Shown here: piece after piece, positions 1-15,823 of the stretch
Layout: every line of letters begins with the position of its first letter
Numbering within the stretch: the first letter of the stretch is position 1
Virus record (IMG/VR): IMGVR_UViG_2541047849_000002
Length of the DNA stretch: 19,746 bases
Source: a virus
Taxonomy: Duplodnaviria > Heunggongvirae > Uroviricota > Caudoviricetes
Strand: one strand, 5' to 3'
Position numbers and translations under genes: made by a program
The notes under the pieces: generated by a model
Seen by the model: only the letters and a program-made list of their open reading frames with translations
What the model was told of the DNA's origin: nothing
Databases searched by the model: none

Positions 1-1164
1 TTACGCCTTCTTTATATCCTCCATAATTCCAGAGTGGGACATATTTGGGACATTATCACCAAAAATGTCGTCTATTTTCCTCGCATGCTCTGTCAAATGA
101 TTAGGCGCAAGGTGAGCATACCTACGAACCATTTCTATGGACTCCCATCCGCCCATTTCCTGAAGCACTGATAATGGGACGCCTGACTGAATCAGCCAGC
201 TTGCCCAGGTGTGTCTGAGGTCATGGAAACGGAAATCTTCAATTCCTGCACGACGACAAGCTGATAGCCATGATGTCTTGCTGTCGATGCGCATCTTCCT
301 GACCGCAGGCGTTGATGTTCCATCTGCTCGCTTAGCCGCCTTGGTATGTACAAACACCCATTTGTGATGCTTGCCTATTTGATCACGCAACACTTTACAG
401 GCGGAATCGTTCAGCGCCACACCAATGGCGCGGTTTGATTTGCTCTCTTCTGGATTCACCCAGGCAACTCGTCGCTGCATGTCGATTTGTTGCCATTCCA
501 GATTTATGATGTTCGACTTTCTCAGACCAGTTGCCAGCGCAAACTTGACGACAGATTTCAGTGGTTCGGGGCACTCATCAATAAGGCGTTTTGCTTCCTC
601 CTTTTCCAGCCATCTGACTCGCTTGTTTCTGACCGCTGGTATCTTGATGACAGGCGCTTTTTCCAGCCACTTCCAGTCGCGTTCTGCAGCACGGAGAATG
701 GCCTTTATCATGGCAAGATGCTTTGCCTTTGTCTGAGTTGATACTGGCTTTGGTTCATAAACAGGCGGTTCTTTACCTTTCCTGATGGCGGCCTGAACTT
801 TCTGTTTCCATATTTCTTTCGTCTTTCTGTTATGCATTCTGCTTACAGCAGAGTAAATCTTTGCCTCCGAGATATCTTTAAGCCTTATACCCTCAAAATG
901 TTCAAGCCAGAACTCAATCCGGCTTTTATCTGAATCGAGAGATTTTTTATCAGCTTTTTCCTCAAGCCATCTTAGGCAGGCCTCTTCAAAAGTGACATCA
1001 GGTAAATCCCCTAGCTTTTCTACTCGCCAGAGTTCTGCTTTTCGCTTGTCGTGCAACTCCTGAGCTTGCCGCTTGTCCTTTGTGCCAAGAGATTCCTTAA
1101 TTCGTTTCCCGCCCGGGAGCGAATACGAGGCATACCATATTTCATTTCTGCGGAAGAGTGACAT
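1..1164 (-). CDS. intD: Phage tyrosine integrase (DLP12-type), 387 aa
   Basis: Complete minus-strand ORF, ATG at 1164-1162 and TAA at 3-1. C-terminal catalytic region [10 protein letters not shown] ... RRYAHL fits the tyrosine recombinase signature. Translation matches E. coli IntD as I recall it. Confidence 0.95.
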
Positions 1165-1391
1165 TTTCTTTCCTCTGTTATGCCATCACCCGCGCTCACC
1201 TGGACAGTATGCAGCGGAGACTGAAGCGCCGCAATGCAGGCTTGCCGTGTTGTGAGGTAAGGAGATTTTGGCTTGGTTGGATCTTTACGTGTTGCCTGTA
1301 GGCGGCCTGTTCGTATCCAGTTGGTGGCGGTTGGTCTGGATATCTTAAGAAACTGACAGGCCTCATCGAGTGTGAGGCTGTATGATTCCAT
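1020..1391 (-). CDS. xisD: Excisionase-like HTH protein (Xis/AlpA type), about 123 aa with an unusually long C-terminal tail overlapping int
   Basis: Minus-strand ORF directly upstream of int. ATG at 1391-1389 is preceded by a GAGGT Shine-Dalgarno. N-terminal [26 protein letters not shown] resembles the Xis/AlpA helix-turn-helix. The frame runs about 145 nt into int, so it may be frameshifted or degenerate. Confidence 0.5.
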
Positions 1392-1641
1392 GGTTACCTC
1401 TGCTTTTTGAACGCATGTCACGTAACTTCTTAATGTGTTCTGCCGTTTCGATCTCTTCTGCTATCCGATCTGCATCAGCTTTATTCACAGGTTCAAAGTC
1501 ATGATTAAAGCGGAACATGCTGGCGATACATGTTCTGCCTTTTCGGATGTAGTGAACTTTGTTGTGGGTAGAACGCAGGATTTTGCAGGGAGTGCCGTGG
1601 TGGTCGACGTACCAGGTGTTAGGCAAAATGATTCTGAACAT
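1363..1641 (-). pseudogene. exoD: C-terminal remnant of a lambda-type exonuclease (exo); 5' part deleted
   Basis: Minus-strand frame ending ...HYIRKGRTCIASMFRFNHDFEPVNKADADRIAEEIE aligns loosely with the C-terminal ~60 residues of lambda Exo (...[33 protein letters not shown], recalled). No N-terminal exo sequence is present, and the frame abuts the start of O. Confidence 0.4.
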
Positions 1642-2461
1642 TTTTACACCTCAGTTGGCCGGATTAACACAGCACCAGCTTCTGGTCTTTCTGGCTGTCA
1701 TGCGCAAAACATATGGCTTTAATAAAAAACTGGATTGGGTTAGCAACGAGCAACTTTCCGAATTAACCGGGATATTGCCGCACAAGTGTTCTGCTGCAAA
1801 AAGTGTTCTGGTAAAGCGTGGGATTTTTATTCAGAGCGGGCGGAATACCGGCATTAATAATGTGGTCAGTGAATGGTCAACATTACCCGAATCAGGTAAG
1901 AAAAATAAAGTTTACCTGAAAGAGGTAAATTTACCTGAATCAGGTAAAAAAAGTTTACCCAAATCAGGTAAAGGCGTTTACCCGAATCAGGTAAACACAA
2001 AAGACAAACTAACAAAAGACAATATAAAACCTTTTTCGTCCGAGAATTCTGGCGAATCCTCTGACCAACCAGAAAACGATCTTCCTGTGGTGAAACCGGA
2101 TGCTGCAATTCAGAGCGGCAGCAAGTGGGGGACAGCAGAAGACCTGACCGCCGCAGAGTGGATGTTTGACATGGTGAAGACCATCGCGCCATCAGCCAGA
2201 AAACCGAATTTTGCAGGGTGGGCTAACGATATCCGCCTGATGCGTGAACGTGACGGACGTAACCACCGCGACATGTGTGTGCTGTTCCGCTGGGCATGCC
2301 AGGTCAACTTCTGGTCCGGTAACGTGCTAAGTCCGGCCAAACTCCGCGACAAGTGGACCCAGCTCGAAATCAACCGAAACAAGCAACAGGCTGGCGTGAT
2401 AGCCGGCAAACCAAAACTCGACCTGACGAACACTGACTGGATTTACGGGGTGGAGCTATGA
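1628..2461 (+). CDS. O: Replication initiator protein O (lambdoid); divergent N-terminal iteron-binding domain, lambda-like C-terminal domain
   Basis: LAVMRKTYGFNKKLDWVSNEQLSELTGILPHKCSAAKSVLVKRGIF parallels the lambda O N-domain. The C-terminal ~110 aa (...WANDIRLMRERDGRNHRDMCVLFRWACQ...WIYGVEL) matches the lambda O C-domain as I recall it. Stop overlaps the P start (ATGA at 2458-2461). Start taken as ATG 1628; the ORF track's 1559 is a TTG. Confidence 0.8.
   Translation: MILNIFTPQLAGLTQHQLLVFLAVMRKTYGFNKKLDWVSNEQLSELTGILPHKCSAAKSVLVKRGIFIQSGRNTGINNVVSEWSTLPESGKKNKVYLKEVNLPESGKKSLPKSGKGVYPNQVNTKDKLTKDNIKPFSSENSGESSDQPENDLPVVKPDAAIQSGSKWGTAEDLTAAEWMFDMVKTIAPSARKPNFAGWANDIRLMRERDGRNHRDMCVLFRWACQVNFWSGNVLSPAKLRDKWTQLEINRNKQQAGVIAGKPKLDLTNTDWIYGVEL
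1883..1994. repeat. Replication origin iterons: five 17-bp dyad-symmetric repeats (TTACCYGAATCAGGTAA) inside O, followed by an AT-rich stretch to about 2035
   Basis: Copies at 1883-1899, 1912-1929 (variant centre), 1931-1947, 1955-1971 and 1978-1994, then an A/T-rich tract at 1995-2035. Same architecture as ori-lambda, which lies within O. Confidence 0.7.
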
Positions 2462-3159
2462 AAAACATCGCCGCACAGATGGTTAACTTTGACTGTGAGC
2501 AGATGCGCCGGATCGCCAACAACATGCCGGAACAGTACGACGAAAAGCCACAGGTACAGCAGGTAGCGCAGATCATCAACGGTGTGTTCAGCCAGTTACT
2601 GGCAACTTTCCCGGCGAGCCTGGCTAACCGTGACCAGAATGAACTGAACGAAATCCGCCGCCAGTGGGTTCTGGCTTTCCGGGAAAACGGGATCACCACA
2701 ATGGAACAGGTTAACGCTGGAATGCGCGTAGCCCGTCGGCAGAATCGACCATTCCTGCCATCACCCGGGCAGTTTGTCGCCTGGTGCCGGGAAGAAGCAT
2801 CTGTTAACGCCGGGCTGCCAAACGTCAGCGAGCTGGTTGATATGGTTTACGAGTATTGCCGGAAGCGTGGCCTGTATCCGGATGCAGAGTCTTATCCGTG
2901 GAAATCGAACGCGCATTACTGGTTGGTTACCAACTTGTACCAGAACATGCGGGCCAATGCGCTGACTGACGCGGAATTACGGCGCAAGGCTGCCGATGAA
3001 CTGACCTGTATGACAGCGCGAATTAACCGTGGTGAGACGATACCTGAACCAGTAAAACAACTTCCTGTTATGGGCGGTAGACCTCTAAATCGTGCACAGG
3101 CTCTGGCGAAGATCGCAGAAATTAAAGCTAAGTTCGGACTGAAAGGAGCAAGTGTATGA
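2458..3159 (+). CDS. P: Replication protein P (DnaB helicase loader), 233 aa
   Basis: Translation MKNIAAQMVNFD...AKIAEIKAKFGLKGASV is close to identical to lambda P over its full length as I recall it. Coupled to O and ren by overlapping stop/start codons. Confidence 0.95.
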   Translation: MKNIAAQMVNFDCEQMRRIANNMPEQYDEKPQVQQVAQIINGVFSQLLATFPASLANRDQNELNEIRRQWVLAFRENGITTMEQVNAGMRVARRQNRPFLPSPGQFVAWCREEASVNAGLPNVSELVDMVYEYCRKRGLYPDAESYPWKSNAHYWLVTNLYQNMRANALTDAELRRKAADELTCMTARINRGETIPEPVKQLPVMGGRPLNRAQALAKIAEIKAKFGLKGASV

Positions 3160-3458
3160 CGGGCAAAGAGGCAATTATTCATTACCTGGGGACGCATAAG
3201 AGCTTCTGTGCACAGGACGTTGCCGCGGTAACAGGCGCAACCGTAACCAGCATAAATCAGGCTGCGGCTAAAATGGCGCGGGCAGGAATCCTGGTCGTTG
3301 ATGGTAAGGTCTGGCGAACGGTGTATTACCGGTTCGCTACCAGAGAAGAACGGGAAGGAAAGGTGAGCACGAATCTGATTTTTAAGGAGTGTCGCCAGAG
3401 TGCCGCGATGAAACGCGTATTGAGGGTATATAAAAGAACATCAATGGGTACACAATGA
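3156..3458 (+). CDS. ren: Ren-like protein, 100 aa; last ~8 residues differ from lambda Ren
   Basis: MTGKEAIIHYLGTHKSFCAQDVAAVTGATVTSINQAAAKMARAGILV... matches lambda Ren until about codon 91 and then diverges (...KRVLRVYKRTSMGTQ). This marks the left edge of the inserted island. Confidence 0.8.
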   Translation: MTGKEAIIHYLGTHKSFCAQDVAAVTGATVTSINQAAAKMARAGILVVDGKVWRTVYYRFATREEREGKVSTNLIFKECRQSAAMKRVLRVYKRTSMGTQ

Positions 3459-3525
3459 TGAAACAGGTGAGTTGATTTCAAACTGTAGTACAATTCTCTC
3501 CAGTTTGAACAGGAAAGAATATGCT

Positions 3526-3858
3526 ATGAACCCTTATATTTATCTTGGTGGTGCAATACTTGCAGAGGTCATTGGTACAACCTTAATGAAGTTTTCAGAA
3601 GGTTTTACACGGTTATGGCCATCTGTTGGTACAATTATTTGTTATTGTGCATCATTCTGGTTATTAGCTCAGACGCTGGCTTATATTCCTACAGGGATTG
3701 CTTATGCTATCTGGTCAGGAGTCGGTATTGTCCTGATTAGCTTACTGTCATGGGGATTTTTCGGCCAACGGCTGGACCTGCCAGCCATTATAGGCATGAT
3801 GTTGATTTGTGCCGGTGTGTTGGTTATTAATTTATTGTCACGAAGCACACCACATTAA
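3526..3858 (+). CDS. emrE: Small multidrug resistance efflux transporter EmrE, 110 aa
   Basis: MNPYIYLGGAILAEVIGTTLMKFSEGFTRLWPS...LSRSTPH matches EmrE. AGGAAAG Shine-Dalgarno at 3511-3517. Four hydrophobic segments. Confidence 0.95.
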   Translation: MNPYIYLGGAILAEVIGTTLMKFSEGFTRLWPSVGTIICYCASFWLLAQTLAYIPTGIAYAIWSGVGIVLISLLSWGFFGQRLDLPAIIGMMLICAGVLVINLLSRSTPH

Positions 3859-3889
3859 AAATAATTTGTTTTTAAACGACTAAAATATG

Positions 3890-3930
3890 GAGGCTCTTAT
3901 ATTTATATGAGCCTCGTTTTATGCTTTTTG
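3890..3930 (+). terminator. Putative intrinsic terminator downstream of emrE
   Basis: Inverted repeat GAGGCTC (3890-3896) / GAGCCTC (3909-3915) followed by GTTTTATGCTTTTTG. Confidence 0.5.
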
Positions 3931-4113
3931 TTAATGTCTTTATTTTTTATGTATTCTTTTGTGCTTTCAAGATTATGGCGTGAGAAAATTGCAATACGAT
4001 TATTGTTGTATATTCAAGATAATGTGACCTTAATTGTCTTTTTAAATAAAAATTAAACAAAAGTTATATCCCACCACTAAGGTTTATAAAAGCATACGTT
4101 AGCAGGTGTCACC

Positions 4114-5640
4114 ATGAAAAAAGCCATAGCATATATGCGATTTTCATCACCAGGTCAGATGTCTGGCGACTCATTGAACCGACAGAGAAGACTTATTGCT
4201 GAATGGTTAAAGGTAAATAGTGATTATTATCTTGATACCATAACATATGAAGATTTAGGATTAAGTGCATTCAAAGGAAAGCATGCACAATCAGGAGCTT
4301 TTTCGGAATTTTTAGATGCTATAGAGCATGGTTATATATTGCCAGGAACTACATTGTTAGTTGAAAGTTTGGACAGACTTTCAAGAGAAAAAGTCGGTGA
4401 AGCGATTGAGCGTCTGAAATTGATTTTGAATCACGGTATTGATGTTATAACTCTTTGCGATAATACAGTCTATAATATTGACTCTTTGAATGATCCATAT
4501 TCATTAATAAAAGCCATACTTATAGCACAAAGGGCAAATGAAGAAAGCGAGATAAAGTCAAGTCGGGTTAAATTATCATGGAAGAAAAAACGGCAGGATG
4601 CACTGGAGTCAGGCACGATTATGACGGCGTCTTGTCCGAGATGGCTCTCATTGGATGACAAAAGAACAGCTTTTATTCCAGACCCCGACAGGGTGAAAAC
4701 GATTGAGCTAATTTTTAAACTCAGGATGGAAAGGCGATCATTGAATGCAATAGCCAAGTATTTAAATGATCATGCTGTAAAAAATTTCTCAGGCAAAGAA
4801 AGTGCATGGGGGCCTTCTGTAATTGAAAAATTATTAGCGAATAAAGCTCTGATAGGTATATGCGTACCTTCATATCGTGCAAGAGGTAAAGGAATAAGTG
4901 AAATCGCTGGCTATTATCCCAGAGTCATATCAGATGATTTGTTTTACGCTGTGCAGGAAATTCGGTTGGCACCTTTTGGTATTAGCAATAGTAGCAAAAA
5001 TCCTATGTTGATAAATCTACTTCGAACAGTTATGAAGTGCGAGGCTTGTGGTAATACCATGATTGTTCATGCGGTATCTGGAAGTTTGCATGGCTATTAT
5101 GTTTGTCCGATGAGAAGACTGCATCGATGTGACAGGCCATCAATAAAGAGAGATTTGGTTGATTATAATATCATTAATGAGTTGCTTTTTAATTGTAGTA
5201 AAATCCAACCAGTTGAAAACAAGAAAGATGCTAATGAAACTTTAGAGTTGAAAATTATTGAGCTCCAGATGAAAATTAATAATTTAATTGCTGCATTATC
5301 TGTTGCGCCTGAAGTTACCGCTATAGCAGAAAAAATCAGAGTATTAGATAAAGAATTACGAAGGGCTTCGGTATCATTAAAAACTTTGAAGAGTAAAGCG
5401 GTGAGTTCACTTGGTGATTTTCATGCTATTGACTTAACCAGTAAAAATGGGCGAGAGCTATGTCGTACACTTGCCTATAAAACATTCGAAAAAATCATAA
5501 TCAATACAGATAATAAAACCTGTGATATCTATTTTATGAATGGCATTGTTTTTAAACACTATCCTTTAATGAAAACAATATCCGCCCAGCAGGCGATAAG
5601 TACTCTCAAATATATGGTTGATGGTGAGGTTTATTTTTGA
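4114..5640 (+). CDS. ybcK: Large serine recombinase (YbcK type), 508 aa
   Basis: N-terminal resolvase-type catalytic domain (AIAYMRFSSPGQ ... LLVESLDRLSRE), a Cys-rich zinc-ribbon segment (CEACGNTMIVH...YYVCPMRRLHRCDRP) and a coiled-coil region. AGGTG Shine-Dalgarno. Visibly AT-rich coding sequence. Confidence 0.9.
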   Translation: MKKAIAYMRFSSPGQMSGDSLNRQRRLIAEWLKVNSDYYLDTITYEDLGLSAFKGKHAQSGAFSEFLDAIEHGYILPGTTLLVESLDRLSREKVGEAIERLKLILNHGIDVITLCDNTVYNIDSLNDPYSLIKAILIAQRANEESEIKSSRVKLSWKKKRQDALESGTIMTASCPRWLSLDDKRTAFIPDPDRVKTIELIFKLRMERRSLNAIAKYLNDHAVKNFSGKESAWGPSVIEKLLANKALIGICVPSYRARGKGISEIAGYYPRVISDDLFYAVQEIRLAPFGISNSSKNPMLINLLRTVMKCEACGNTMIVHAVSGSLHGYYVCPMRRLHRCDRPSIKRDLVDYNIINELLFNCSKIQPVENKKDANETLELKIIELQMKINNLIAALSVAPEVTAIAEKIRVLDKELRRASVSLKTLKSKAVSSLGDFHAIDLTSKNGRELCRTLAYKTFEKIIINTDNKTCDIYFMNGIVFKHYPLMKTISAQQAISTLKYMVDGEVYF

Positions 5641-5751
5641 GTAATAATCACTTTTCCAACCGTGCTATAGTAAGAAAGTTAGGTAAGTACAATAAAAGTA
5701 TCTATCCTGAACGAAGCGTCCTGAGCTATGGTTTTACTATAGGGACTGCCA

Positions 5752-6075
5752 ATGGATGCTGGCGTTCCCGTTCTAGCAGTTCAACAATTCCCAATCACAA
5801 AACAATTCACTGATAACGAACTTTGCACACTCGCCTGGTTATGGCGAGCAGGGAATGTGATGTTAATTGCCTACCAGAACGTTACTCATCTTCTTCAGGA
5901 TGCGGAGCATGGTGAGGCTGGTCACTTCACTTCCATCGAGCAAGAATATCCCCAGAGACTCAACAGAGCGCGAGCAATCCTCGCCCGAGAAACGGCACAT
6001 GTAAAACTTCAGCCGTGGCAGGATGATAAGTGGAGTCAAGTATTGCCGCATTTACCTCAGAATCTGTTTCAATAA
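5752..6075 (+). CDS. Hypothetical protein, 107 aa, no recognisable family
   Basis: ORF with ATG and a weak AGGGA Shine-Dalgarno. Base composition by eye is less AT-rich than the flanking ybcK and HNH genes. Could be a gene fragment. Confidence 0.3.
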   Translation: MDAGVPVLAVQQFPITKQFTDNELCTLAWLWRAGNVMLIAYQNVTHLLQDAEHGEAGHFTSIEQEYPQRLNRARAILARETAHVKLQPWQDDKWSQVLPHLPQNLFQ

Positions 6076-6093
6076 AGGCGCTAGTTAGTAAGG

Positions 6094-6119
6094 CTTCCGT
6101 CATTCTGCGATGACGGAAG
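6094..6119. other. Perfect 10-bp-stem hairpin (CTTCCGTCAT-tctgcg-ATGACGGAAG) with no U-tract
   Basis: Inverted repeat read directly, 19 nt downstream of the 107-aa ORF stop. May be a terminator, RNA stability element or recombination-site remnant. Confidence 0.3.
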
Positions 6120-6249
6120 TGCGGGCTGCGTACGGGAGAGCAATTGCATGAATAATATAAATATTCCGCTCACTCCATATAGCGATTTCTGATACAAACT
6201 TATCTATTGTGGTAAAATTATAGAAACAAACTTATAGCGTACTAACCAT

Positions 6250-7032
6250 ATGGACAATATTAATAAACACGGGCTCTCAAGAAGAATACCTGAGACAATA
6301 AAACGTCAGATAAGGCAAAGGTGCGGCTTTGGCTGTGTAATTTGTGGATTTGGATTTTATGATTATGAGCATTTTAAACCTGACTTCGTTGATGCCAAAA
6401 TACATGATCCGAATGGAATGACACTTCTTTGCTCCCAATGCAATCAAAAAAGAGCTCGTGGTAGACTTTCAGCACAGACAGTGGAAATAGCTGACAGAAA
6501 TCCCAAGTGCTTACAGGCTGGTTTTGCAAATGAAATGTTTGATTTTCATAATGAGCCTATAACAGTAAAATTTGCAGGAGTGACGTTTCATAACTGTCAA
6601 AATTTGATTGTAGTCAACGAACAACCCATTCTTTCTGTGAAACCTTCACCCATACCACATGGACCGATGCTTTTATCAGGAATTTTCTGTAATTCTATTG
6701 GTAAGGAGACTTTACTGATAGATGAAAATGAATGGAAAGCTAAATCAGACAATTGGGATGTGGAGTGTACCGGCCCGCGTATAACAATACGACGTGGGCC
6801 AGGAGAGTTTGCCCTCGTTCTAAAAATGGAACCTCCAACAGGATTGATTGTTGAGCGTCTTGATATGTTGTATGAAGGGGTCAGGATGAAAGGAGATAAA
6901 GATCTGCTGGAAGTTTCGATTAATGGAGGTCCCTTGCACAGATGGCAATCATGCTCAATGTCAAATTGCCATACAGGGCTTGCGATTCAGGGCGGTATTA
7001 GAGCTGCTAATGATCCTTTGTATTGCGCCTAA
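6250..7032 (+). CDS. HNH-nuclease-domain protein, 260 aa, with an uncharacterised ~185-aa C-terminal domain
   Basis: N-terminal CGFGCVICGF...YDYEHFKP...NGMTLLCSQCNQKRA fits the HNH motif (Cys pair, catalytic His, Asn, second Cys pair). The rest has no family I recognise. Possible extended -10 promoter (TGgTAAAAT) about 30 bp upstream. Confidence 0.6.
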   Translation: MDNINKHGLSRRIPETIKRQIRQRCGFGCVICGFGFYDYEHFKPDFVDAKIHDPNGMTLLCSQCNQKRARGRLSAQTVEIADRNPKCLQAGFANEMFDFHNEPITVKFAGVTFHNCQNLIVVNEQPILSVKPSPIPHGPMLLSGIFCNSIGKETLLIDENEWKAKSDNWDVECTGPRITIRRGPGEFALVLKMEPPTGLIVERLDMLYEGVRMKGDKDLLEVSINGGPLHRWQSCSMSNCHTGLAIQGGIRAANDPLYCA

Positions 7033-7074
7033 ATCCACTAAATTGATTTTCAACAATCAACTTGCCATAATTAA

Positions 7075-7103
7075 GTCACCGGAGTTTGAACTCCTCCGGT
7101 GAC
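7075..7103. terminator. Strong hairpin, putative terminator/insulator between the island and ninB
   Basis: GTCACCGGAG (7075-7084) pairs with CTCCGGTGAC (7094-7103), a perfect 10-bp stem, followed by TTCTG. Confidence 0.45.
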
Positions 7104-7224
7104 TTCTGCGCTAAACGGGGACGTTTATGCGCACATACAATCCAACCTCTCTTCTCCATTCACAGATGCAGAAATGCACCTGCGATATTTTGCATCCAGC
7201 GTTTGATCTCTGCGGAGGTGAAGC

Positions 7225-7680
7225 GTGAACCTCCCACAAGATGGTATCAAATTGCATCGCGGTAACTTCACCGCTATCGGTCGGCAGATCCAGCCTTATC
7301 TGGAGGACGGCAAATGCTTTCGCATGGTGCTTAAACCGTGGCGCGAGAGACGCAGTCTTTCCCAGAATGCACTCAGCCACATGTGGTACAGCGAAATCAG
7401 TGAATACCTCATCAGCAGGGGTAAAACGTTCGCCACTCCAGCTTGGGTAAAAGATGCTCTCAAACACACTTATCTCGGTTATGAAACCAAAGAACTGGTT
7501 GATGTCGTAACCGGTGAAATCACCACCATTCAGTCATTACGTCATACCTCCAATCTTGATACCGGAGAGATGTATGTCTTCCTGTGTAAGGTTGAAGCCT
7601 GGGCGATGAATATTGGCTGCCACCTGACTATTCCGCAGAGCTGCGAGTTCCAGCTGCTGCGCGACAAGCAGGAGGCGTAA
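7225..7680 (+). CDS. ybcN: NinB-family recombination protein (YbcN), 151 aa
   Basis: GTG start with GGAGG Shine-Dalgarno. [15 protein letters not shown]...[20 protein letters not shown] matches YbcN and the NinB core motif. Confidence 0.9.
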
Positions 7681-7850
7681 TGGCTACACCGCTTATTCGT
7701 GTCATGAACGGACACATCTACAGAGTACCAAATCGTCGTAAGCGTAAGCCTGAGCTGAAACCATCCGAAATACCAACACTGCTCGGATATACCGCCAGCC
7801 TGGTTGATAAAAAATGGTTGCGACTGGCAGCAAGGAGGAATCATGGCTGA
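7680..7850 (+). CDS. ninE: NinE protein, 56 aa
   Basis: ATG overlaps the ybcN stop (TAATG). Translation [56 protein letters not shown]. Below the ORF-track length cutoff; found by manual translation. Confidence 0.8.
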   Translation: MATPLIRVMNGHIYRVPNRRKRKPELKPSEIPTLLGYTASLVDKKWLRLAARRNHG

Positions 7851-8133
7851 TTTGAGAAAAGCAGCGCGTGGTCGGGAATGCCAGGTAAGAATCCCTGGCG
7901 TATGTAATGGCAACCCTGAAACGTCTGTACTGGCACATATCCGGCTGACTGGATTGTGCGGCACCGGTACCAAACCGCCAGACCTGATTGCCACCATTGC
8001 ATGTTCTGCCTGCCACGACGAAATCGACCGCCGCACACATTTTGTCGATGCTGCATATGCAAAAGAATGCGCGCTGGAAGGTATGGCGAGAACACAGGTT
8101 ATCTGGCTGAAAGAGGGGGTTATTAAGGCGTGA
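7843..8133 (+). CDS. ybcO: YbcO, putative Cys-rich metal-binding nuclease, 96 aa
   Basis: ATG at 7843 with AAGGAGG Shine-Dalgarno, overlapping the ninE 3' end. [23 protein letters not shown]...[13 protein letters not shown] matches YbcO. Confidence 0.85.
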
Positions 8134-8492
8134 ATACCTACAGCATCACATTACCCTGGCCTCCGAGCAATAATCGCTATTACCGCCATAATCGCGGGCG
8201 CACGCACGTCAGCGCAGAGGGGCAGGCATACCGCGATAACGTCGCCCGAATCATTAAAAACGCAATGCTGGATATCGGCCTGGCTATGCCTGTGAAAATC
8301 CGCATTGAGTGCCACATGCCGGATCGCCGTCGCCGTGACCTGGATAATCTGCAAAAAGCCGCTTTTGACGCACTCACTAAAGCAGGTTTCTGGCTGGATG
8401 ATGAGCTGGTCGTTGATTACCGCGTTGTGAAGATGCCTGTTACCAAAGGTGGGAAGCTGGAACTGACCATCACTGAACTGGGAGATGAATGA
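8130..8492 (+). CDS. rusA: Holliday junction resolvase RusA, 120 aa
   Basis: GTG start overlapping the ybcO stop. [31 protein letters not shown]...[11 protein letters not shown] matches RusA. Confidence 0.95.
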
Positions 8493-8629
8493 TGTTTGAG
8501 TCTTATATGGCAGAACGTCTTCGCCACCGCTGGATGCGCCTGCGCTTATATCGTTTCCCCGGTTCTGTTTTGACCGATTACCGAATACTGAGGAATTACG
8601 CCAAAACCCTGACAGGAGCAGGAGTATGA
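8489..8629 (+). CDS. ylcG: Small protein YlcG, 46 aa
   Basis: ATGATG start overlapping the rusA stop; translated manually as [46 protein letters not shown]. Confidence 0.55.
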
Positions 8630-8714
8630 AGTCAGAGATAACAATCAACTAATACTGTTTTATTGATTTTTGCTTGTAATTGGCGTTCTGGTCTGATTTT
8701 TGTGGAGTAAGTTG

Positions 8715-9098
8715 ATGCGTGATATTCAGATGGTTCTTGAGCGTTGGGGAGCGTGGGCGGCTAATAATCATGAAGATGTGACCTGGTCGTCCATTGCCGC
8801 CGGTTTTAAGGGATTAATTCCTTCAAAAGTAAAATCTCGCCCGCAATGTTGTGACGATGACGCGATGATCATTTGCGGGTGCATGGCCCGTCTGAAAAAG
8901 AACAACAGCGATTTGCACGATTTATTAGTAGATTATTATGTAGTCGGTATGACATTCATGTCACTGGCAGGTAAGCATTGCTGCTCTGATGGTTATATCG
9001 GGAAAAGGTTACAGAAGGCTGAGGGCATAATTGAAGGGATGTTAATGGCATTAGATATCCGGTTAGAGATGGATATCGTTGTTAATAACTCTAATTAA
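8715..9098 (+). CDS. quuD: Late-gene antiterminator Q homolog, 127 aa
   Basis: ATG at 8715 with GGAG Shine-Dalgarno. [24 protein letters not shown]... with a Cys-rich zinc-binding region; matches QuuD. Confidence 0.85.
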
Positions 9099-9131
9099 TA
9101 TGCCAATTGTTTACTAAAAATTATTAAAAAT

Positions 9132-9149
9132 GGGGCGTTGAGACGCCCC
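9132..9149 (-). terminator. Hairpin GGGGCG-ttgaga-CGCCCC with a U-tract on the minus strand; candidate nmpC terminator
   Basis: Perfect 6-bp stem; on the minus strand it is followed by ATTTTTAATAATTTTT. Lies about 140 nt downstream of the nmpC stop. Confidence 0.35.
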
Positions 9150-9241
9150 CAAAAATAAAGGGTAATATATAACAGAAGGTTTATATAGTTAGAAGCAAGG
9201 TTGTGCTTCTAAAGGAAGTGGCTTGAGGGAGCCACTTATAT

Positions 9242-9277
9242 GTTGGGGAGGCAAAGCCTCCCGCAACATATCTTTTT
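9242..9277 (+). terminator. Intrinsic terminator on the plus strand downstream of Q (tR-prime-like)
   Basis: GGGAGGC-aaa-GCCTCCC stem (extendable with one bulge) followed by ATATCTTTTTCG. Position relative to Q mirrors lambda pR-prime/6S RNA/tR-prime. Confidence 0.4.
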
Positions 9278-9287
9278 CGTAATCAGA

Positions 9288-10370
9288 TTAGAACTGATAC
9301 ACCAGACCTACAGCGACGATGTCGTCGGTATCAATACCAGCTGTTTTGGTAAACTTACTATCGTCAATTAAGTTGATTTTGTAATCAACAAAAGTGGACA
9401 TGTTTTTATTAAAGTAGTAAGTAGCACCGACATCGACATACTTGACTAAGTCTCGGTCACCATGAACACCAAGGTCTTTACCTTTTGACTGAAGGTAAGC
9501 AACAGATGGTCGCAGACCGAAGTCAAACTGATATTGTGCTACTGCTTCAAAGTTTTGTGCTTTGTTTGCAATATGGTTATTACCAAAAACGGTCATATTC
9601 TGAGTTTCAGAATATGTGGTAGCCAGATAGATATTGTTCGCATCATATTTCAGGCCTGCAGCCCATACTTCCGCATTTTTGCCGGAGGCATTGAATTTGC
9701 TCTTACCATAGGCGACCTGACCGTCAGTGCGATCTGATTTAGCATAGGTTGCACCCACGCCGAATCCTTCATACTCATAAGTAGTGGAGAAACCGAAACC
9801 ATCACCATTGGCTTCAGTTACGTCAGTGCGGTCATTTTTACCCTGATACTGAGCAGCAAAGTTCAGGCCATCGACCAGACCAAAGAAGTCGTTGTTACGA
9901 TAGGTTGCAACACCAGTGGTGCGACCAGTCATGAACACATCTGTTTGGGTCCAGGTATCGCCACCGAATTCTGGCAGAACGTCAGTCCACGCACCGATGT
10001 CGTATGCTACACCGTAGTTACGGCCGTAATCGATTGAGCCGTAGTCACCGAATTTCAGGCCTGCAAATGCAAGACGGGTTTTGTCTTTGGAGGAACCTTG
10101 AGATTCAGCGCGGTTGCCTTTGAATTCATATTCCCACTGACCGAAACCAGTCAGTTGATCGTTGATTTGGGTTTCACCTTTGAAGCCAAGACGGGCATAA
10201 GTAGTATCACCATCATCTGCATCGTTAGAGGAAAAGTAGTGCTTGGCATTAACTTTCCCGTACAGATCCAGCTTGTTACTGTCTTTATTATAAATTTCAG
10301 CTGCCTGAGCAGACATCGCCATCAGTACTGATGCAGCTACAGCAGAAATTGCCACTGTTAATTTTTTCAT
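9288..10370 (-). CDS. nmpC: Outer membrane general porin (NmpC/OmpD type), intact, 360 aa
   Basis: Signal peptide ending AQA, beta-barrel porin sequence throughout, C-terminal VYQF. AAGGG Shine-Dalgarno. Matches NmpC. Confidence 0.95.
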
Positions 10371-10958
10371 CGTGAGCCCTTTTTTTTGAACTATTATTAA
10401 AAAATGATGTCACTGCGCGATAAATATTCATCTAATCAATGTGATTATTTCAAGATGTAAGTTTTAGTTTCTCATTTAATTTGTGAAGTAGATCTCTATT
10501 TTTATCTGAACTTTTTCTATCGAAACCTATTTATGGCTCTTATTTGAACAAAAATAAACCTATTAGCTAATTTATATTAATGGCTGTTATTTATGGGGGT
10601 TCTATAATTCGGTGGTTTAATTTAAATCAACTAAAAATAACGCCGGAAATTATTTATTGGTTATTTGTTGAGGTTTTCTTATATATTTGTGGTGGTGTTT
10701 TGAACACTCGGTAGCATTCTCATAAATATCATTCAGTGGTTTACGTACGTAAAAAATTGGTTATGCTGTTAAGAGTGGTTACTTCGTCACACAGCTTAAA
10801 CCCGCCGTCGAGCTGGTTTTTCCATTTTTTGAGTCTCGATATTAGCTGATAACTCAATACCTGAGTTATTCACTGACTCCGAGTCTGTTACGTTTCTGCT
10901 TTTTTGCGATACGTTGTATTCCCTCAATTTACACCCGCTTTGTCTGCGAGGTGGGGTT

Positions 10959-11174
10959 ATGAAATCCATGGATAAGTTAACAACGGGTGTCGCCTATGGC
11001 ACCTCAGCAGGTAGTGCCGGTTACTGGTTTTTACAGCTGCTCGATAAAGTCACGCCCTCACAGTGGGCAGCAATAGGTGTGCTGGGTAGCCTGGTATTTG
11101 GCCTGCTGACGTACCTGACAAACCTTTATTTCAAGATTAAAGAAGATAAGCGCAAGGCTGCGAGAGGTGAATAA
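10959..11174 (+). CDS. essD: Class II holin (phage 21 S-type pinholin), 71 aa, with dual-start motif
   Basis: [25 protein letters not shown]... with two transmembrane segments and a charged C-terminus. GAGGTGGGG Shine-Dalgarno. Met1 and Met4 give the holin/antiholin dual start. Confidence 0.85.
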
Positions 11175-11671
11175 TGCCTCCATCATTACGAAAAGCCGTT
11201 GCTGCTGCTATTGGTGGCGGAGCAATTGCTATAGCATCAGTGTTAATCACTGGCCCAAGTGGTAACGATGGTCTGGAAGGTGTCAGCTACATACCATACA
11301 AAGATATTGTTGGTGTATGGACTGTATGTCACGGGCATACAGGAAAAGACATCATGCTCGGTAAAACGTATACCAAAGCAGAATGCAAAGCCCTCCTGAA
11401 TAAAGACCTTGCCACGGTCGCCAGACAAATTAACCCGTACATAAAAGTTGATATACCGGAAACAACGCGCGGCGCTCTTTACTCGTTCGTTTACAACGTG
11501 GGCGCTGGCAATTTCAGAACATCGACGCTTCTTCGCAAAATAAACCAGGGCGATATCAAAGGCGCATGTGATCAGCTACGTCGCTGGACATATGCTGGCG
11601 GTAAGCAATGGAAAGGTCTCATGACTCGTCGTGAGATTGAGCGTGAAATCTGTTTGTGGGGTCAGCAATGA
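11174..11671 (+). CDS. rrrD: SAR (signal-anchor-release) endolysin / lysozyme, 165 aa
   Basis: ATG overlaps the essD stop. N-terminal Gly/Ala-rich weakly hydrophobic segment ([18 protein letters not shown]) followed by a lysozyme fold; matches RrrD / R21. Confidence 0.95.
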
Positions 11672-12129
11672 ACAGAGTAACCGCGATTATCTCCGCTCTG
11701 GTTATCTGCATCATCGTCTGCCTGTCATGGGCTGTTAATCATTACCGTGATAACGCCATTACCTACAAAGCCCAGCGCGACAAAAATGCCAGAGAACTGA
11801 AGCTGGCGAACGCGGCAATTACTGACATGCAGATGCGCCAGCGTGATGTTGCTGCACTGGATGAAAAATACACGAAGGAGTTAGCTAATGCGAAAGCTGA
11901 AAATGATGCTCTGCGTGATGATGTTGCCGCTGGTCGTCGTCGGTTGCACATCAAAGCAGTCTGTCAGTCAGTGCGTGAAGCCACCACCGCCTCCGGCGTG
12001 GATAATGCAGCCTCCCCCCGACTGGCAGACACCGCTGAACGGGATTATTTCACCCTCAGAGAGAGGCTGATCACTATGCAAAAACAACTGGAAGGAACCC
12101 AGAAGTATATTAATGAGCAGTGCAGATAG
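11668..12129 (+). CDS. rzpD: Rz i-spanin, 153 aa
   Basis: ATGA overlap with rrrD. N-terminal transmembrane segment and coiled-coil periplasmic domain; matches RzpD. Confidence 0.9.
11888..12070 (+). CDS. rzoD: Rz1 o-spanin lipoprotein, 60 aa, embedded in the +1 frame of Rz
   Basis: [20 protein letters not shown] lipobox and a Pro-rich mature part ([15 protein letters not shown]). Entirely inside rzpD. Confidence 0.85.
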
Positions 12130-12160
12130 AGCTGCCCATATCGATGGGCAACTCATGCAA

Positions 12161-12454
12161 TTATTGTGAGCAATACACACGCGCTTCCAGCGGAGTATAA
12201 ATGCCTAAAGTAATAAAACCGAGCAATCCATTTACGAATGTTTGCTGGGTTTCTGTTTTAACAACATTTTCTGCGCCGCCACAAATTTTGGCTGCATCAA
12301 CAGTTTTCTCCTGTCCAATTCCCGAAACGAAGAAGTGATGGGTGATGGTTTCCTTTGGTGTTACTGCTGTCGGTTTGTTTCCAACAGTAAACGTCTGTTG
12401 AGCACATCCTGTAATAAGCATTGCCAGAGCGGCAGAAAACAACATTTTTTTCAT
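12161..12454 (-). CDS. borD: Bor-family outer membrane lipoprotein, 97 aa
   Basis: MKKMLFSAALAMLITGC lipoprotein signal with AGGA Shine-Dalgarno; matches Bor/BorD. Confidence 0.9.
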   Translation of the reverse strand: MKKMLFSAALAMLITGCAQQTFTVGNKPTAVTPKETITHHFFVSGIGQEKTVDAAKICGGAENVVKTETQQTFVNGLLGFITLGIYTPLEARVYCSQ

Positions 12455-12813
12455 CTTATTATCCTGCATTGTTAAAAACGGCAGAATCCTATGTGACAAC
12501 AATTAAACGATAGTTAAATGGATTGATGAAAATTAAAACTATATAGGTGGATGCTCAGCCTATTGGAGGAGGGGGGCACTCAGAATCCTGTGGAATGAAA
12601 TAAACCGCTCTTTCTGTCCATTACCCTTTTAGCTGCGCTGTATCGTCGCCGTATTCCCGCATTAACCATGACCGTAGCCCGACGGGGAATTCCTTCTGCG
12701 TGAGTGTGCGGGAATAATCAAAAACGATGCACACCGGGTTTTACTGTGCTGACAGACGCAGGGTTACCCTCATAGTCGCTTTTCCGGTGCGATGGTGGAA
12801 GAAACCGGGATGT

Positions 12814-13008
12814 TTATTCATCATCACTCTGGATTGATGTATATGCTCTCTTTTCTGACGTTAGTCTCCGACGGCAGGCTTCAATGACCCAGGCTGAGAA
12901 ATTCCCAGACCCTTTTTGCTCAAGAGCGATGTTAATTTGTTCAATCATTTGGTTAGGAAAGCGGATGTTGCGGGTTGTTGTTCTGCGGGTTCTGTTCTTA
13001 GTTGACAT
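12814..13008 (-). CDS. Small ribbon-helix-helix (Arc/Mnt-like) DNA-binding protein, 64 aa; possibly YlcI
   Basis: RNIRFPNQMIEQINIALEQKGSGNFSAWVIEACRRRL follows the Arc-type beta-strand plus two-helix pattern. Sits where lambda has small ORFs between bor and cos. Confidence 0.55.
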   Translation of the reverse strand: MSTKNRTRRTTTRNIRFPNQMIEQINIALEQKGSGNFSAWVIEACRRRLTSEKRAYTSIQSDDE

Positions 13009-13194
13009 GAGGTTGCCCCGTATTCAGTGTCGCTGATTTGTATTGTCTGAATTTGTTTTTACGTTAAGTTGATGCAGATCAATTAATACGATACCTGCGT
13101 CATAATTGATTATTTGACGTGGTTTGATGGCGTAGATGCACGTTGTGACATGTAGATGATAATTATTATCATTTTGCGGGTCCTTTCCGGCGAT

Positions 13195-13396
13195 CCGACA
13201 GGTTACGGGGCGGCGACCTCGCGGGTTTTCTCTATTTATGAAAATTTTCCGGTTTAAGGCATTTCCGTTCTTCTTCGTCGTAACTTAATGTTTTTATTTA
13301 AAATACCCCCTGAAAAGAAAGGAAACGACAGGTGCTGAAAACGAGCTTTTGGGCCTCTGTCGTTTCCTTTCTCTGTTTTTGGCCGTGGAATGAACA
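13195..13396 (+). other. Lambda-type cos site: right-end sequence, cosN 12-nt cohesive end GGGCGGCGACCT at 13208-13219, and cosB up to the Nu1 start
   Basis: ...GATCCGACAGGTTACG|GGGCGGCGACCT|CGCGGGTTTTC.CTATTTATGAAAATTTTCCGGTTTAAGGC... agrees almost base for base with the joined ends of the lambda genome as I recall them. Confidence 0.8.
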
Positions 13397-15823
13397 ATGG
13401 AAGTCAACAAAAAGCAGCTGGCTGACATTTTCGGTGCGAGTATCCGTACCATTCAGAACTGGCAGGAACAGGGAATGCCCGTTCTGCGAGGCGGTGGCAA
13501 GGGTAATGAGGTGCTTTATGACTCTGCCGCCGTTATAAGATGGTATGCCGAAAGGGATGCTGAAATTGAGAACGAAAAGCTGCGCCGGGAAGTTGAAGAA
13601 CTGCGGCAGGCCAGCGAGACAGATCTCCAGCCAGGGACTATTGAGTACGAACGCCATCGACTTACGCGTGCGCAGGCCGACGCACAGGAGCTGAAAAATG
13701 CCAGAGACTCCGCTGAAGTGGTGGAAACCGCATTCTGTACTTTCGTGCTGTCGCGGATCGCAGGTGAAATTGCCAGTATTCTCGACGGGATCCCCCTGTC
13801 GGTGCAGCGGCGTTTTCCGGAACTGGAAAACCGACATGTTGATTTCCTGAAACGGGATATCATCAAAGCCATGAACAAAGCAGCCGCGCTGGATGAACTG
13901 ATACCGGGGTTGCTGAGTGAATATAACAGCGCACAGGCGGCAGCGTCCTCGCAGACTGCATCGGCAAACTCCGCGACAGCAGCCAAAAAATCAGAAACCA
14001 ACGCGAAAAACAGCGAGACAGCCGCAAAGACGAGCGAAACCAACGCAAAGTCCAGCCAGACGGCAGCGAAAACCAGCGAAACGAATGCCAAAGCCAGTGA
14101 AACTGCGGCGAAAAATAGCCAGAATGCAGCAGCCGAAAGCGAGAGCGCGGCAGCCGGTTCTGCGACTGCAGCAGCTGGATCAGCAACTGCTGCGGCTAAC
14201 AGCCAGAAAGCAGCGAAGACGAGCGAAACTAACGCAAAGTCCAGCCAGACGGCAGCGAAGACCAGCGAAACAAATGCCAAAGCCAGCGAAACTGCGGCGA
14301 AAAGCAGTCAGGATGCAGCAGCCGAAAGCGAGAGTGCTGCAGCTGGTTCTGCAAGTGCGGCGGCTGCTTCTGCCACTGCATCAGCAAACAGTCAAAAAGC
14401 TGCAAAAACCAGTGAAACCAATGCAAAGACAAGCGAGACTGCAGCGGCGAACTCGGCGCAAGCATCGGCAGCAAGCCAGACAGCAGCTAAAGCAAGTGAG
14501 GATGCAGCCAGAGAGTATGCAAGCCAGGCAGCAGAGCCGTATAAATATGTCTTACAGCCACTGCCTGATGTGTGGATACCGTTTAACGATTCACTGGATA
14601 TGCTTGCTGGCTTTTCGCCTGGTTATAAGCAAATAACCGTAGGTGATGATGTTATTAAAATGCCATCCGATAAGGTTGTTAGCTTCAAACGCGCATCAGG
14701 TGCAACATACATTAATAAATCAGGTGTATTAACCGTTGCTGAAGTTGACGAACCGCGATTTGAACGAGAAGGTTTGCTGATTGAAGGACAGAGAACAAAC
14801 TATTTCAGAAATTCAAATACACCAGAAGCATGGAATAACACGGGTAGTGTGTCTGTTGAGTCGTTCGACAGTGATAAGGGGTTTAACTATGGAAGGATAA
14901 CTGTTATCAATGAAAATCCGACAGCACAAGGATATCAGGCAATTGCTGTAAACACGAATGATGCTTACACCTGCCCGGCAGGTTCTTATACGACGATATC
15001 GTGTCTGACGAAAAGTGATAATTCCCGGTGTCGTGCAAGGTTCGGAAAAATGTCTGATAATGGTGCGTTTGTTTTTCATTCAGATGCAGTTCTGGATCCT
15101 GTTACGGGAAATGTTGTTCATGGAAATAATGTGACGGTGACGGCAGAAAGAGTCGGTGAATGGTGGTTGTTTACCGCCACTCTTTTTGCAGATGCGGAAA
15201 TGATAATCAGCTCAAGATTTGAAATCCTGGCGATGCCTGGAATCAGTATTATCCCCAATGGCTCTACGTTAGATATTGCGATGCCTCAGGCGGAGATTGG
15301 GTCGTACAGGACGTCATTTATCATTACTGAAGGGGCTCCTGGCACTCGCTCCAGCGACATGGTGACAATACCTGTAAGAAACAATATTCACCGATTACCA
15401 TTCAGTGCTCTTGTTGAAGTTAATAAAAACTGGGATATCCCTCCCAGCAAATCACCATTAATCTTTAATGTTAAAGATTATCAGGAAAATGGTCTGTTCA
15501 CGCATGGATTCCGTGGTAATAATTTCTCTGATGCCGGTTCTCCTTTTATTTCTATGGGAGGGTGTAATAAATATGTGGCAACAACCCAGAGGAAAATCAT
15601 TTCAGGCTTCCGTTGTGGCGCTGATGGAGATGTTCAGGCCGTATGTAATGGTGAATTATCTGTTGCGGCAAAAACAACATGGACTTCAATTGTTCCACGG
15701 GCAGTATTGCGAATTGGAGGGCAGGGCACTAATGGGGAGTATCATCTTTTTGGTCATATCCGTAATCTGCGTATCTGGCATAAAGAATTAACTGATGCGC
15801 AAATGGGGGAGAGTATTAAATGA
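13397..15823 (+). CDS. Chimeric ORF, 808 aa: terminase small subunit Nu1 (residues 1-176) fused in frame to the shaft and C-terminal receptor-binding part of a side tail fibre
   Basis: Residues 1-176 (MEVNKKQLADIFGASIRTIQNWQEQGMPVLRGG...PGLLSEY) match lambda Nu1, which continues IEQSG-stop. Here the frame continues into Ala/Ser/Thr-rich SETNAK repeats and a C-terminal jelly-roll-like domain (...GEYHLFGHIRNLRIWHKELTDAQM). Junction at about 13922-13927. Confidence 0.8.
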   Translation: MEVNKKQLADIFGASIRTIQNWQEQGMPVLRGGGKGNEVLYDSAAVIRWYAERDAEIENEKLRREVEELRQASETDLQPGTIEYERHRLTRAQADAQELKNARDSAEVVETAFCTFVLSRIAGEIASILDGIPLSVQRRFPELENRHVDFLKRDIIKAMNKAAALDELIPGLLSEYNSAQAAASSQTASANSATAAKKSETNAKNSETAAKTSETNAKSSQTAAKTSETNAKASETAAKNSQNAAAESESAAAGSATAAAGSATAAANSQKAAKTSETNAKSSQTAAKTSETNAKASETAAKSSQDAAAESESAAAGSASAAAASATASANSQKAAKTSETNAKTSETAAANSAQASAASQTAAKASEDAAREYASQAAEPYKYVLQPLPDVWIPFNDSLDMLAGFSPGYKQITVGDDVIKMPSDKVVSFKRASGATYINKSGVLTVAEVDEPRFEREGLLIEGQRTNYFRNSNTPEAWNNTGSVSVESFDSDKGFNYGRITVINENPTAQGYQAIAVNTNDAYTCPAGSYTTISCLTKSDNSRCRARFGKMSDNGAFVFHSDAVLDPVTGNVVHGNNVTVTAERVGEWWLFTATLFADAEMIISSRFEILAMPGISIIPNGSTLDIAMPQAEIGSYRTSFIITEGAPGTRSSDMVTIPVRNNIHRLPFSALVEVNKNWDIPPSKSPLIFNVKDYQENGLFTHGFRGNNFSDAGSPFISMGGCNKYVATTQRKIISGFRCGADGDVQAVCNGELSVAAKTTWTSIVPRAVLRIGGQGTNGEYHLFGHIRNLRIWHKELTDAQMGESIK
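14030..14407 (+). repeat. Tandem duplication of a 189-bp (63-codon) unit within the tail-fibre shaft, with partial related units on both sides (about 13975-14480)
   Basis: Unit 1 at 14030-14218 and unit 2 at 14219-14407 are near-identical (TSETNAKSSQTAAKTSETNAKASETAAK...ANSQKAAK). Confidence 0.85.

Follow-up and report, generated by a model that had tools for sequence, protein, structure and literature searches.

The window, that is, the whole stretch of DNA analysed here (19,746 nucleotides; IMG/VR virus record IMGVR_UViG_2541047849_000002), extends from the stop codon of intD to a point inside ompT. Its gene order, intD ... emrE-ybcK ... rusA-quuD-nmpC-lysis-bor-ylcI-cos-nohD ... appY-ompT, is the synteny of the prophage DLP12, and block by block it is 97-99.9% identical to REL606 and 91-99.7% identical to the DLP12 of K-12; in both strains DLP12 occupies the same locus with deletion end-points other than those of the window. 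Judged by this synteny and identity, the element is a DLP12-type cryptic lambdoid prophage, an ordinary remnant of a class recognized by integration at argU with 47-bp att repeats. The attL and attR sites would lie beyond the window, as deduced from relatives: the 47-bp repeats of K-12 and REL606 are found about 60 bp and 424 bp beyond the equivalents of the window ends, which would make the element ~20.2 kb long here.

The window is colinear with the intact phage PhiR34_1 (PV340559, 44.6 kb) except for two large deletions, both with simple junctions, and one substituted segment. PhiR34_1 carries int, xis, red genes, cI-cro-cII, O-P-ren, emrE, ylcJ, ybcK and the nin region, followed by Q, an nmpC-type porin, S-R-Rz, bor, ylcI, cos, Nu1-A and all head and tail genes. 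This plaque-forming phage is essentially an intact DLP12, with emrE, ylcJ, ybcK, ybcL, ybcM, rusA, the nmpC-type porin and bor as passengers among its lambdoid modules. The principal features of the window, from left to right, are as follows.

1..1164, minus strand: integrase gene intD, full length (387 aa), with two amino acid differences from PhiR34_1.
1-1658: segment equivalent to PhiR34_1 18-1675.
1020..1391, minus strand: excisionase gene, full length (123 aa from ATG), with one amino acid difference from PhiR34_1.
1655..2461, plus strand: 5'-truncated O gene, residues 72-339 of 339, with the 71 N-terminal codons and the promoter lost.
About 1656-1658: junction of the left deletion (5.47 kb), with a 3-bp TGG microhomology.
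1656-5649: segment equivalent to PhiR34_1 7146-11138.
1883..1994, plus strand: replication origin, five 17-bp iterons TTACCYRAATCAGGTAA inside the O remnant.
2458..3159, plus strand: replication protein P, full length (Pfam Phage_lambda_P; 233/233 residues, 97% identical to P of PhiR34_1).
5650-7042: block substituted relative to PhiR34_1.
7043-13925: segment equivalent to PhiR34_1 12985-19868, followed by a jump into the tail-fibre gene.
13178-13372: complete lambda-type cos, with subsites in the order, orientation and spacing of lambda.
13397..15823, plus strand: in-frame Nu1(1-176)::tail-fibre fusion ORF of 808 aa, a deletion scar.
13397-13924: Nu1/NohD part of the fusion, residues 1-176 of 181, ending ...LLSEY.
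13925/13926: fusion junction, continuing NSAQAAASS..., the tail-fibre protein from about residue 150.

The left deletion took the sequence from a TraR-like gene through cI, cro and cII together with the first 71 codons of O, and joined the region upstream of a DUF4222 gene to O codon 72, with loss of the immunity region. The right deletion removed A through J and the beginning of stf. When 30 proteins of PhiR34_1 were compared with the window by tblastn, the only matches were Nu1 residues 1-176, O residues 72-339, P residues 1-233 and a 36-residue fragment of Tfa; no A, W, B, C, D, E, FI, FII, Z-J, cI, cro, cII, exo, bet or gam was found in the window. The absence of the large terminase subunit and of capsid genes, claimed in the first-pass annotation, is thus borne out with the morphogenesis proteins of PhiR34_1 as queries. 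The small terminase subunit gene is nearly whole, in the form of the Nu1(1-176)::tail-fibre fusion, and Q, holin, lysozyme, Rz and tail-fibre fragments are still present.

Several segments of the window vary among DLP12 relatives. The substituted segment at 5650-7042 stands in place of the ybcL/ybcM genes of K-12, REL606 and PhiR34_1; one of its ORFs (5752-6075) encodes a P22 antirepressor C-terminal domain, and another, of 260 aa, has no assigned function (phrog_6544, with a weak HNH-like match). The nmpC-type porin gene (9288-10370, minus strand) is intact, encoding 360 aa with a full Porin_1 match, and is split by IS1 in REL606. The interval 12509-12796 has no match in the DLP12 of K-12, which has ybcV and ybcW in the corresponding interval; it has the arrangement of REL606 instead, in which bor/iss is followed directly by ylcI.

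The cos site lies between ylcI and the Nu1 fusion, and base-by-base alignment with lambda located every one of its subsites.

13178..13184, plus strand: cosQ, the packaging-termination subsite, GGGTCCT, identical to lambda 48473-48479.
13203..13224, plus strand: cosN, the 22-bp nicking site, partly symmetric (lambda 48498..17).
13208-13219, inside cosN: 12-nt 5' cohesive end GGGCGGCGACCT, an exact match to lambda.
13207/13208 on the top strand and 13219/13220 on the bottom strand: predicted cosN nicks.
13225..13257, plus strand: I2, the bent spacer (lambda bp 18-50), with a single change, G>T at 13231 (bp 24).
13257..13272, plus strand: R3, the critical TerS (Nu1) site (lambda bp 50-65), with a single change, G>A at 13261 (bp 54).
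13286..13298, minus strand: core of the IHF site I1, AATAAAAACATTA (lambda bp 79-91), between R3 and R2.
13316..13331, minus strand: R2, an inverted TerS site, AGAAAGGAAACGACAG, identical to lambda.
13357..13372, plus strand: R1, an accessory TerS site, CTGTCGTTTCCTTTCT, identical to lambda.

The subsites were defined as in papers of the Feiss laboratory (PMC9026076, PMC4856287, PMC4669245), in which R3 comprises bp 50-65, of which TerS contacts bp 55-63 (PMC9026076), I2 spans bp 18-50 with a critical segment at bp 30-35 (PMC4856287), cosQ is a highly conserved element of 7 bp (PMC4669245), and cosB has the order R3-I1-R2-R1 with R2 inverted (PMC4669245, PMC9026076). The cosB of the window is of this complex lambda type, with the same order, the same inversion and lambda-specific R sequences; R1 and R2 together form an inverted repeat, and the I1 core AATAAAAACATTA has one mismatch with WATCAANNNNTTR. 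The 7-bp segment GGGTCCT is taken to be cosQ after Wieczorek & Feiss, and it lies ~30 bp left of the nick, as a lambda-type cos requires. The spacing from cosN to R3 is that of lambda, with zero indels between them, and the cosN sequence is the same in lambda, DE3, the DLP12 of REL606 and four plaque-forming phages.

The cohesive-end sequence GGGCGGCGACCT has a single exact copy in the window, so there is only one cos. By itself the 12-mer is not significant (chance expectation 0.71 at up to 2 mismatches); its chance occurrence is ruled out by a 1.1-kb alignment with lambda that spans cos at 97% identity, in which 34 substitutions and a single-base gap separate window 12797-13925 (1,129 bp) from lambda 48092..48502/1..719. 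Between cosQ and Nu1, the window differs from lambda by 8 substitutions and by the deletion of a single base, the G at lambda 138, which phage DE3 lacks too and which accounts for the only gap. The first-pass annotation had described an intact lambda-type cos with a lambda-like cohesive end and a lambda-like cosB, and this description holds in all three respects: every subsite is present, the 12 nucleotides at 13208-13219 are identical, and in cosB the R2, R1 and I1 core sequences are identical and R3 has its one change outside the TerS contacts. As for point changes relative to lambda at the nicking positions and R sites, to which the same annotation had drawn attention, there are none in the nicking region of cosN, R1 or R2 and there is one in R3 (G54A). 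The interval that it gave for cos, 13195-13396, is essentially right but omits cosQ, which is 11-17 bp outside its left edge.

The two changes at bp 24 and bp 54 are the basis of an alternative reading in which cos is dead, the R3 change G54A or the I2 change G24T having abolished recognition by terminase or a step after recognition. Neither I2 nor R3 is dispensable, packaging is affected by single-base substitutions in R3 at bp 56, 58 and 59 (PMC9026076, PMC4856287), and bp 54 supplies the G in the CGTTTCC core that is common to R1, R2 and R3 of lambda. Against this, bp 54 lies just outside the segment contacted by TerS (bp 55-63), which is unchanged, and five phage records aligned with the window cos include one, PhiR42_1 (PV340562), that carries every difference between window and lambda from cosQ to Nu1 except that at bp 24, the G54A allele of R3 among them; G54A is taken as harmless because PhiR42_1 carries it. 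The cos region of PhiR42_1 differs from that of the window at bp 24 and by one change left of cosQ (lambda 48448). PhiR42_1 has at least the Nu1-A-W-B packaging genes and was deposited as a 'complete genome', and its plaque formation is read from the host field of the record, which lists E. coli ECOR13. Over residues 1-176, the Nu1 sequences of the window and of PhiR42_1 are 100% identical. The only departures from lambda Nu1 are K48R, A75T and L132I, none of which falls in the recognition helix (residues 17-24) or the wing (residues 31-39; limits from PMC9026076).

The G>T change at 13231 (lambda bp 24) is private to the window. An exact match to the 65-nt segment with T at bp 24 was found in none of 5,426 complete E. 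coli genomes, and in ERR439668, another sample that carries the fusion gene, the base is G; a polymorphism of the lineage was therefore ruled out. The changed base falls within the I2 block of bp 18-29, which can be replaced wholesale without effect on virus growth or yield (PMC4856287), and the critical I2 segment at bp 30-35 has no change; this assessment of G24T is drawn from block-replacement mutants and not from the exact base change. With its shared changes present in PhiR42_1, whose Nu1 matches, and its private change in a replaceable block, the cos of the window is very probably competent in cis, and its inactivation by either change is very unlikely.

Immediately to the right of cos, the fusion ORF matches Pfam Phage_Nu1 over positions 1-164 of 164, the PHROG TerS family over residues 1-183 and a PHROG tail protein over residues 177-807. 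The tail-fibre part has an internal, partly overlapping repeat of ~249 bp at 84% identity (14009-14257 and 14198-14446). The exact fusion protein is encoded also in GCA_000459575.1, to which the window is 100% identical over 8.4 kb, and in the Logan run ERR439668, and its exact junction is in none of the 5,426 complete genomes. EC6563 and WP4-S18-ESBL-08 have the junction of the window with a further deletion of 22 bp, which puts it out of frame, and their genes are annotated as pseudogenes. The REL606 junction is different, joining lambda bp 699 to a fragment of J; derivation of the window junction from the REL606 form was ruled out, since lambda homology ends at bp 699 in REL606 and at bp 719 in the window. 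The differing junctions of REL606, K-12 and the window indicate that copies of DLP12 have decayed independently at this spot. The private mutation of cos and the frame-breaking 22-bp deletion in relatives fit drift rather than selection; selection on cos may also have acted, there being few substitutions by which to judge.

The fusion together with cos might be imagined as a packaging decoy or anti-phage device, a protein that binds cosB or co-assembles with Nu1 and so poisons terminase. The reading frame continues across the junction, the DNA-binding domain is complete and, by the domain layout of Nu1, the oligomerisation domain should be retained as well; the ORF follows Q and the lysis genes in the late operon, and the exact protein recurs in two independent samples. 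Such a strategy is real in that the Rpp proteins of PICIs target TerS (PMC9026076). An in-frame junction, however, is expected one time in three, the close relatives with the 22-bp shorter version have a pseudogene, the exact junction occurs in 0 of 5,426 complete genomes, and expression of the fusion is hypothetical. The sole PADLOC match in the window, of the N-terminus of Nu1 to mad1, is to a generic helix-turn-helix (HTH), on which ground membership in a defence system was rejected. A role of the fusion as a decoy is thus extremely improbable.

Functions for excision and replication are preserved to different extents at the left end. Retention of int and xis, as stated in the first-pass annotation, was confirmed, both genes being intact and full length. 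The integrase is annotated as intD in REL606 and K-12, and the excisionase matches phrog_2907 over positions 2-117 of 117 (E = 4e-46) and is P22-like in size by our estimate. A xis pseudogene like those of K-12 and REL606 was ruled out in the window, where an ORF (1020-1421, minus strand) spans the whole excisionase PHROG; xis is the pseudogene xisD in K-12, and in REL606 PGAP calls only a fragment of 66 bp. The replication module with iterons that the same annotation listed as kept is present in part: the five iterons and P are there, and an A/T-rich stretch extends 3' of the iterons to about 2026, but O is truncated and promoterless. The 181-bp ori region (1870-2050) is 100% identical to that of PhiR34_1. 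An intact replication module was ruled out, because O is without its 71 N-terminal codons and the upstream control genes; cI, cro, cII and pR are all absent upstream of the O remnant.

The suggestion that this configuration is satellite-like is not supported. A scan of the ORFs with Pfam, PHROG and PADLOC (collections used without an Rpp- or AlpA-specific model) yielded no satellite hallmark, and the same three gave no redirection, interference or defence domain in the uncharacterised ORFs. Nor was a helper-independent initiator found, the sole initiator being O without its 71 N-terminal residues and promoter. A satellite would have a cosB distinct from that of its helper, no lysis or structural genes and no colinearity with a phage; the window has the helper-type cosB of lambda, a lysis cassette and colinearity with plaque-forming PhiR34_1. 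No Rfam match to a structured RNA was obtained anywhere in the window, and a scan of 12500-13500 for promoters and terminators gave counts near those expected from shuffled sequence.

The reading that best accommodates these results, with a probability of roughly 0.85, is that the site is the vestigial cos of a DLP12-type cryptic lambdoid prophage and should, by its sequence, still work. A single deletion would have fused Nu1 codon 176 to the middle of the tail-fibre gene, removing the large terminase subunit and the head and tail-shaft genes, and would have halted 528 bp right of cos, so that cos was presumably kept by its position and not by selection. The integrity of the subsites, the missing trans factors and the architecture of the deletions are observations, on which cleavage and its consequences are built here as conditional steps. 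Alone, the cos would be inert; its use would call for IHF and for Nu1/A terminase from a phage with the packaging specificity of lambda, either resident in the same cell or infecting it. With both available, terminase would occupy R3-I1-R2, introduce the nicks in cosN at 13207/13208 and 13219/13220, and be retained on the Nu1 side.

Three consequences may be envisaged, in order of decreasing support. The first is that the double-strand break made by terminase would boost recombination between the remnant and an incoming phage. In K-12, recombinants of lambda with DLP12 are ~100-fold commoner than those with Rac or Qin, 10 of 19 junctions adjoin cos, and recombinants that have acquired the R, Rz or nu1 gene of DLP12 are viable (PMC3945230). 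The second would be abortive packaging rightward into stf', appY, ompT and beyond, without termination. Cos terminases require a second cos to finish (PMC8575938), and since the window has only one, packaging from the chromosomal cos could not terminate; for the same reason, only an excised and replicated concatemer could yield transducing particles. Packaging from cos runs rightward, with the Nu1 side first, and in situ it would leave out emrE, which is ~9.4 kb to the left (upstream); emrE is thus a wrong-side marker for packaging in situ.

The third consequence, expected rarely, is that a related helper would provide Int/Xis and O, whereupon a circle of ~20.2 kb would be excised, replicated from the intact ori and packaged as dimers of ~40.5 kb. 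The limits of the lambda capsid are ~38-51 kb, within which such a dimer would fit. The iterons TTACCYRAATCAGGTAA of the window are probably unlike those of lambda, and this difference together with the truncation of O suggests that lambda itself should not replicate the element; a helper of the PhiR34_1 type, with its 100% identical ori, would be needed instead. Packaging in trans of DNA that bears cos, as in cosmids, is textbook knowledge, and that a matching helper could package this element in trans is a plausible prediction with precedents, and not a new one.

In a rival reading, which takes up the satellite- or cosmid-like idea of the first-pass annotation, the element is mobilisable with a helper: a related lambdoid phage would supply Int/Xis, O, terminase and virions, the element would excise, be copied from its own ori and enter the virions as a dimer, and emrE, nmpC, appY and ompT would thereby spread. 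Its cos, ori, int and xis are intact, att repeats are present in relatives, the dimer would fit the capsid limits of lambda, matching helpers exist in PhiR34_1 and PhiR42_1, and there are precedents in cosmids, in EcCICFT073 (PMC6092414) and in the O157 defective prophages (PMC2669165). On the other hand, there is no helper-sensing regulator, no initiator of its own and no gene for capsid size or packaging redirection; the element is a colinear deletion derivative of a normal phage, with signs of drift in cos and at the fusion junction. Any suitable helper would share extensive homology (97-99%) with the element, which makes marker rescue or recombination likelier than separate packaging (PMC3945230), and the PCR check of De Paepe et al. 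for excision of DLP12, Qin and Rac is understood to indicate no excision. Mobilisation of this kind is unlikely. It is distinctly unlikely that the element of ~20.2 kb would be a working 'natural cosmid' with a helper of the PhiR34_1/PhiR42_1 type, transferred as dimers above the frequency of generalised transduction; if it were, it would move emrE, intact nmpC, appY and ompT between E. coli strains and would represent a step between a decayed prophage and a satellite.

Under the preferred reading of a vestigial but probably competent cos, the window illustrates that a single deletion can spare all the cis sites of a lambdoid phage (att, ori, cos) and yet remove its trans functions. Such remnants remain reachable by related phages through terminase-stimulated recombination, which has been shown for DLP12 in K-12, and possibly through packaging in trans too. 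This bears on the movement of morons such as emrE, nmpC, bor/iss and ompT from strain to strain, and on why lambdoid phages are so mosaic. Both the principle and the DLP12 locus are already in the literature, and the present case is of little importance beyond book-keeping.

Among known systems, phage lambda has the same cos followed by the cognate A gene, which is not found downstream of cos in the window. PhiR34_1 and PhiR42_1, unlike the remnant in the window, are complete phages of 44.6-48.7 kb; PhiR34_1 shares with the window int, xis, O/P/ori, ren, emrE, ybcK, the nin region, Q, nmpC, the lysis genes, bor, ylcI, cos and Nu1. The cos-PICI EcCICFT073 and cosmids resemble the element in being cos-bearing DNA of less than phage size without terminase or capsid genes, and are packaged only by a helper, as multimers in full-size capsids (PMC6092414); EcCICFT073 itself is a 15-kb cos-PICI that is packaged in full-size capsids (PMC6092414). 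PICIs, however, carry a cosB of their own that is recognized through Rpp-TerS, together with an AlpA-type regulator and a separate replicon, and are devoid of phage lysis and tail genes (PMC9026076); none of these PICI features was found among the window ORFs scanned, which include a lysis cassette. The defective lambdoid prophages of O157 Sakai (Sp4 and Sp7 among them) are degraded, with defects in packaging or morphogenesis, like that of the window. O157 defective prophages are excised, packaged and sometimes transferred with the help of co-resident prophages (PMC2669165); packaging in trans is thus a measured property of the Sakai prophages and only a predicted one of the element described here.

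A close counterpart is the DLP12 of K-12, in which, as in the window, cos is kept but neither a working large terminase subunit nor head genes are. Its cos-nohD segment is 97.8% identical to window 12797-13925, and its genes from lysis to cos are in the same order (essD-rrrD-rzpD-bor-ylcI-cos-nohD). PMC3945230 and PMC545071 document the DLP12 cos and functional R, Rz and nu1 in K-12, as well as experimental use of the DLP12 cos region. A lambda cos beside nohD in DLP12, without the large terminase subunit or head genes, is thus already known and belongs to the standard description of K-12. The two remnants differ in that K-12 keeps a full-length nohD and a fragment of A (aaaD), whereas in the window a tail-fibre sequence takes over after Nu1 residue 176; O and ori are missing and xisD is a pseudogene in K-12, whereas xis, P and ori are intact in the window; nmpC is disrupted by IS5 in K-12 and intact in the window; and the segment 5650-7042 differs between them. 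What is specific to the window is a deletion variant of DLP12 with a Nu1(1-176)::Stf fusion, intact xis, ori, P and nmpC, and a private substitution in I2.
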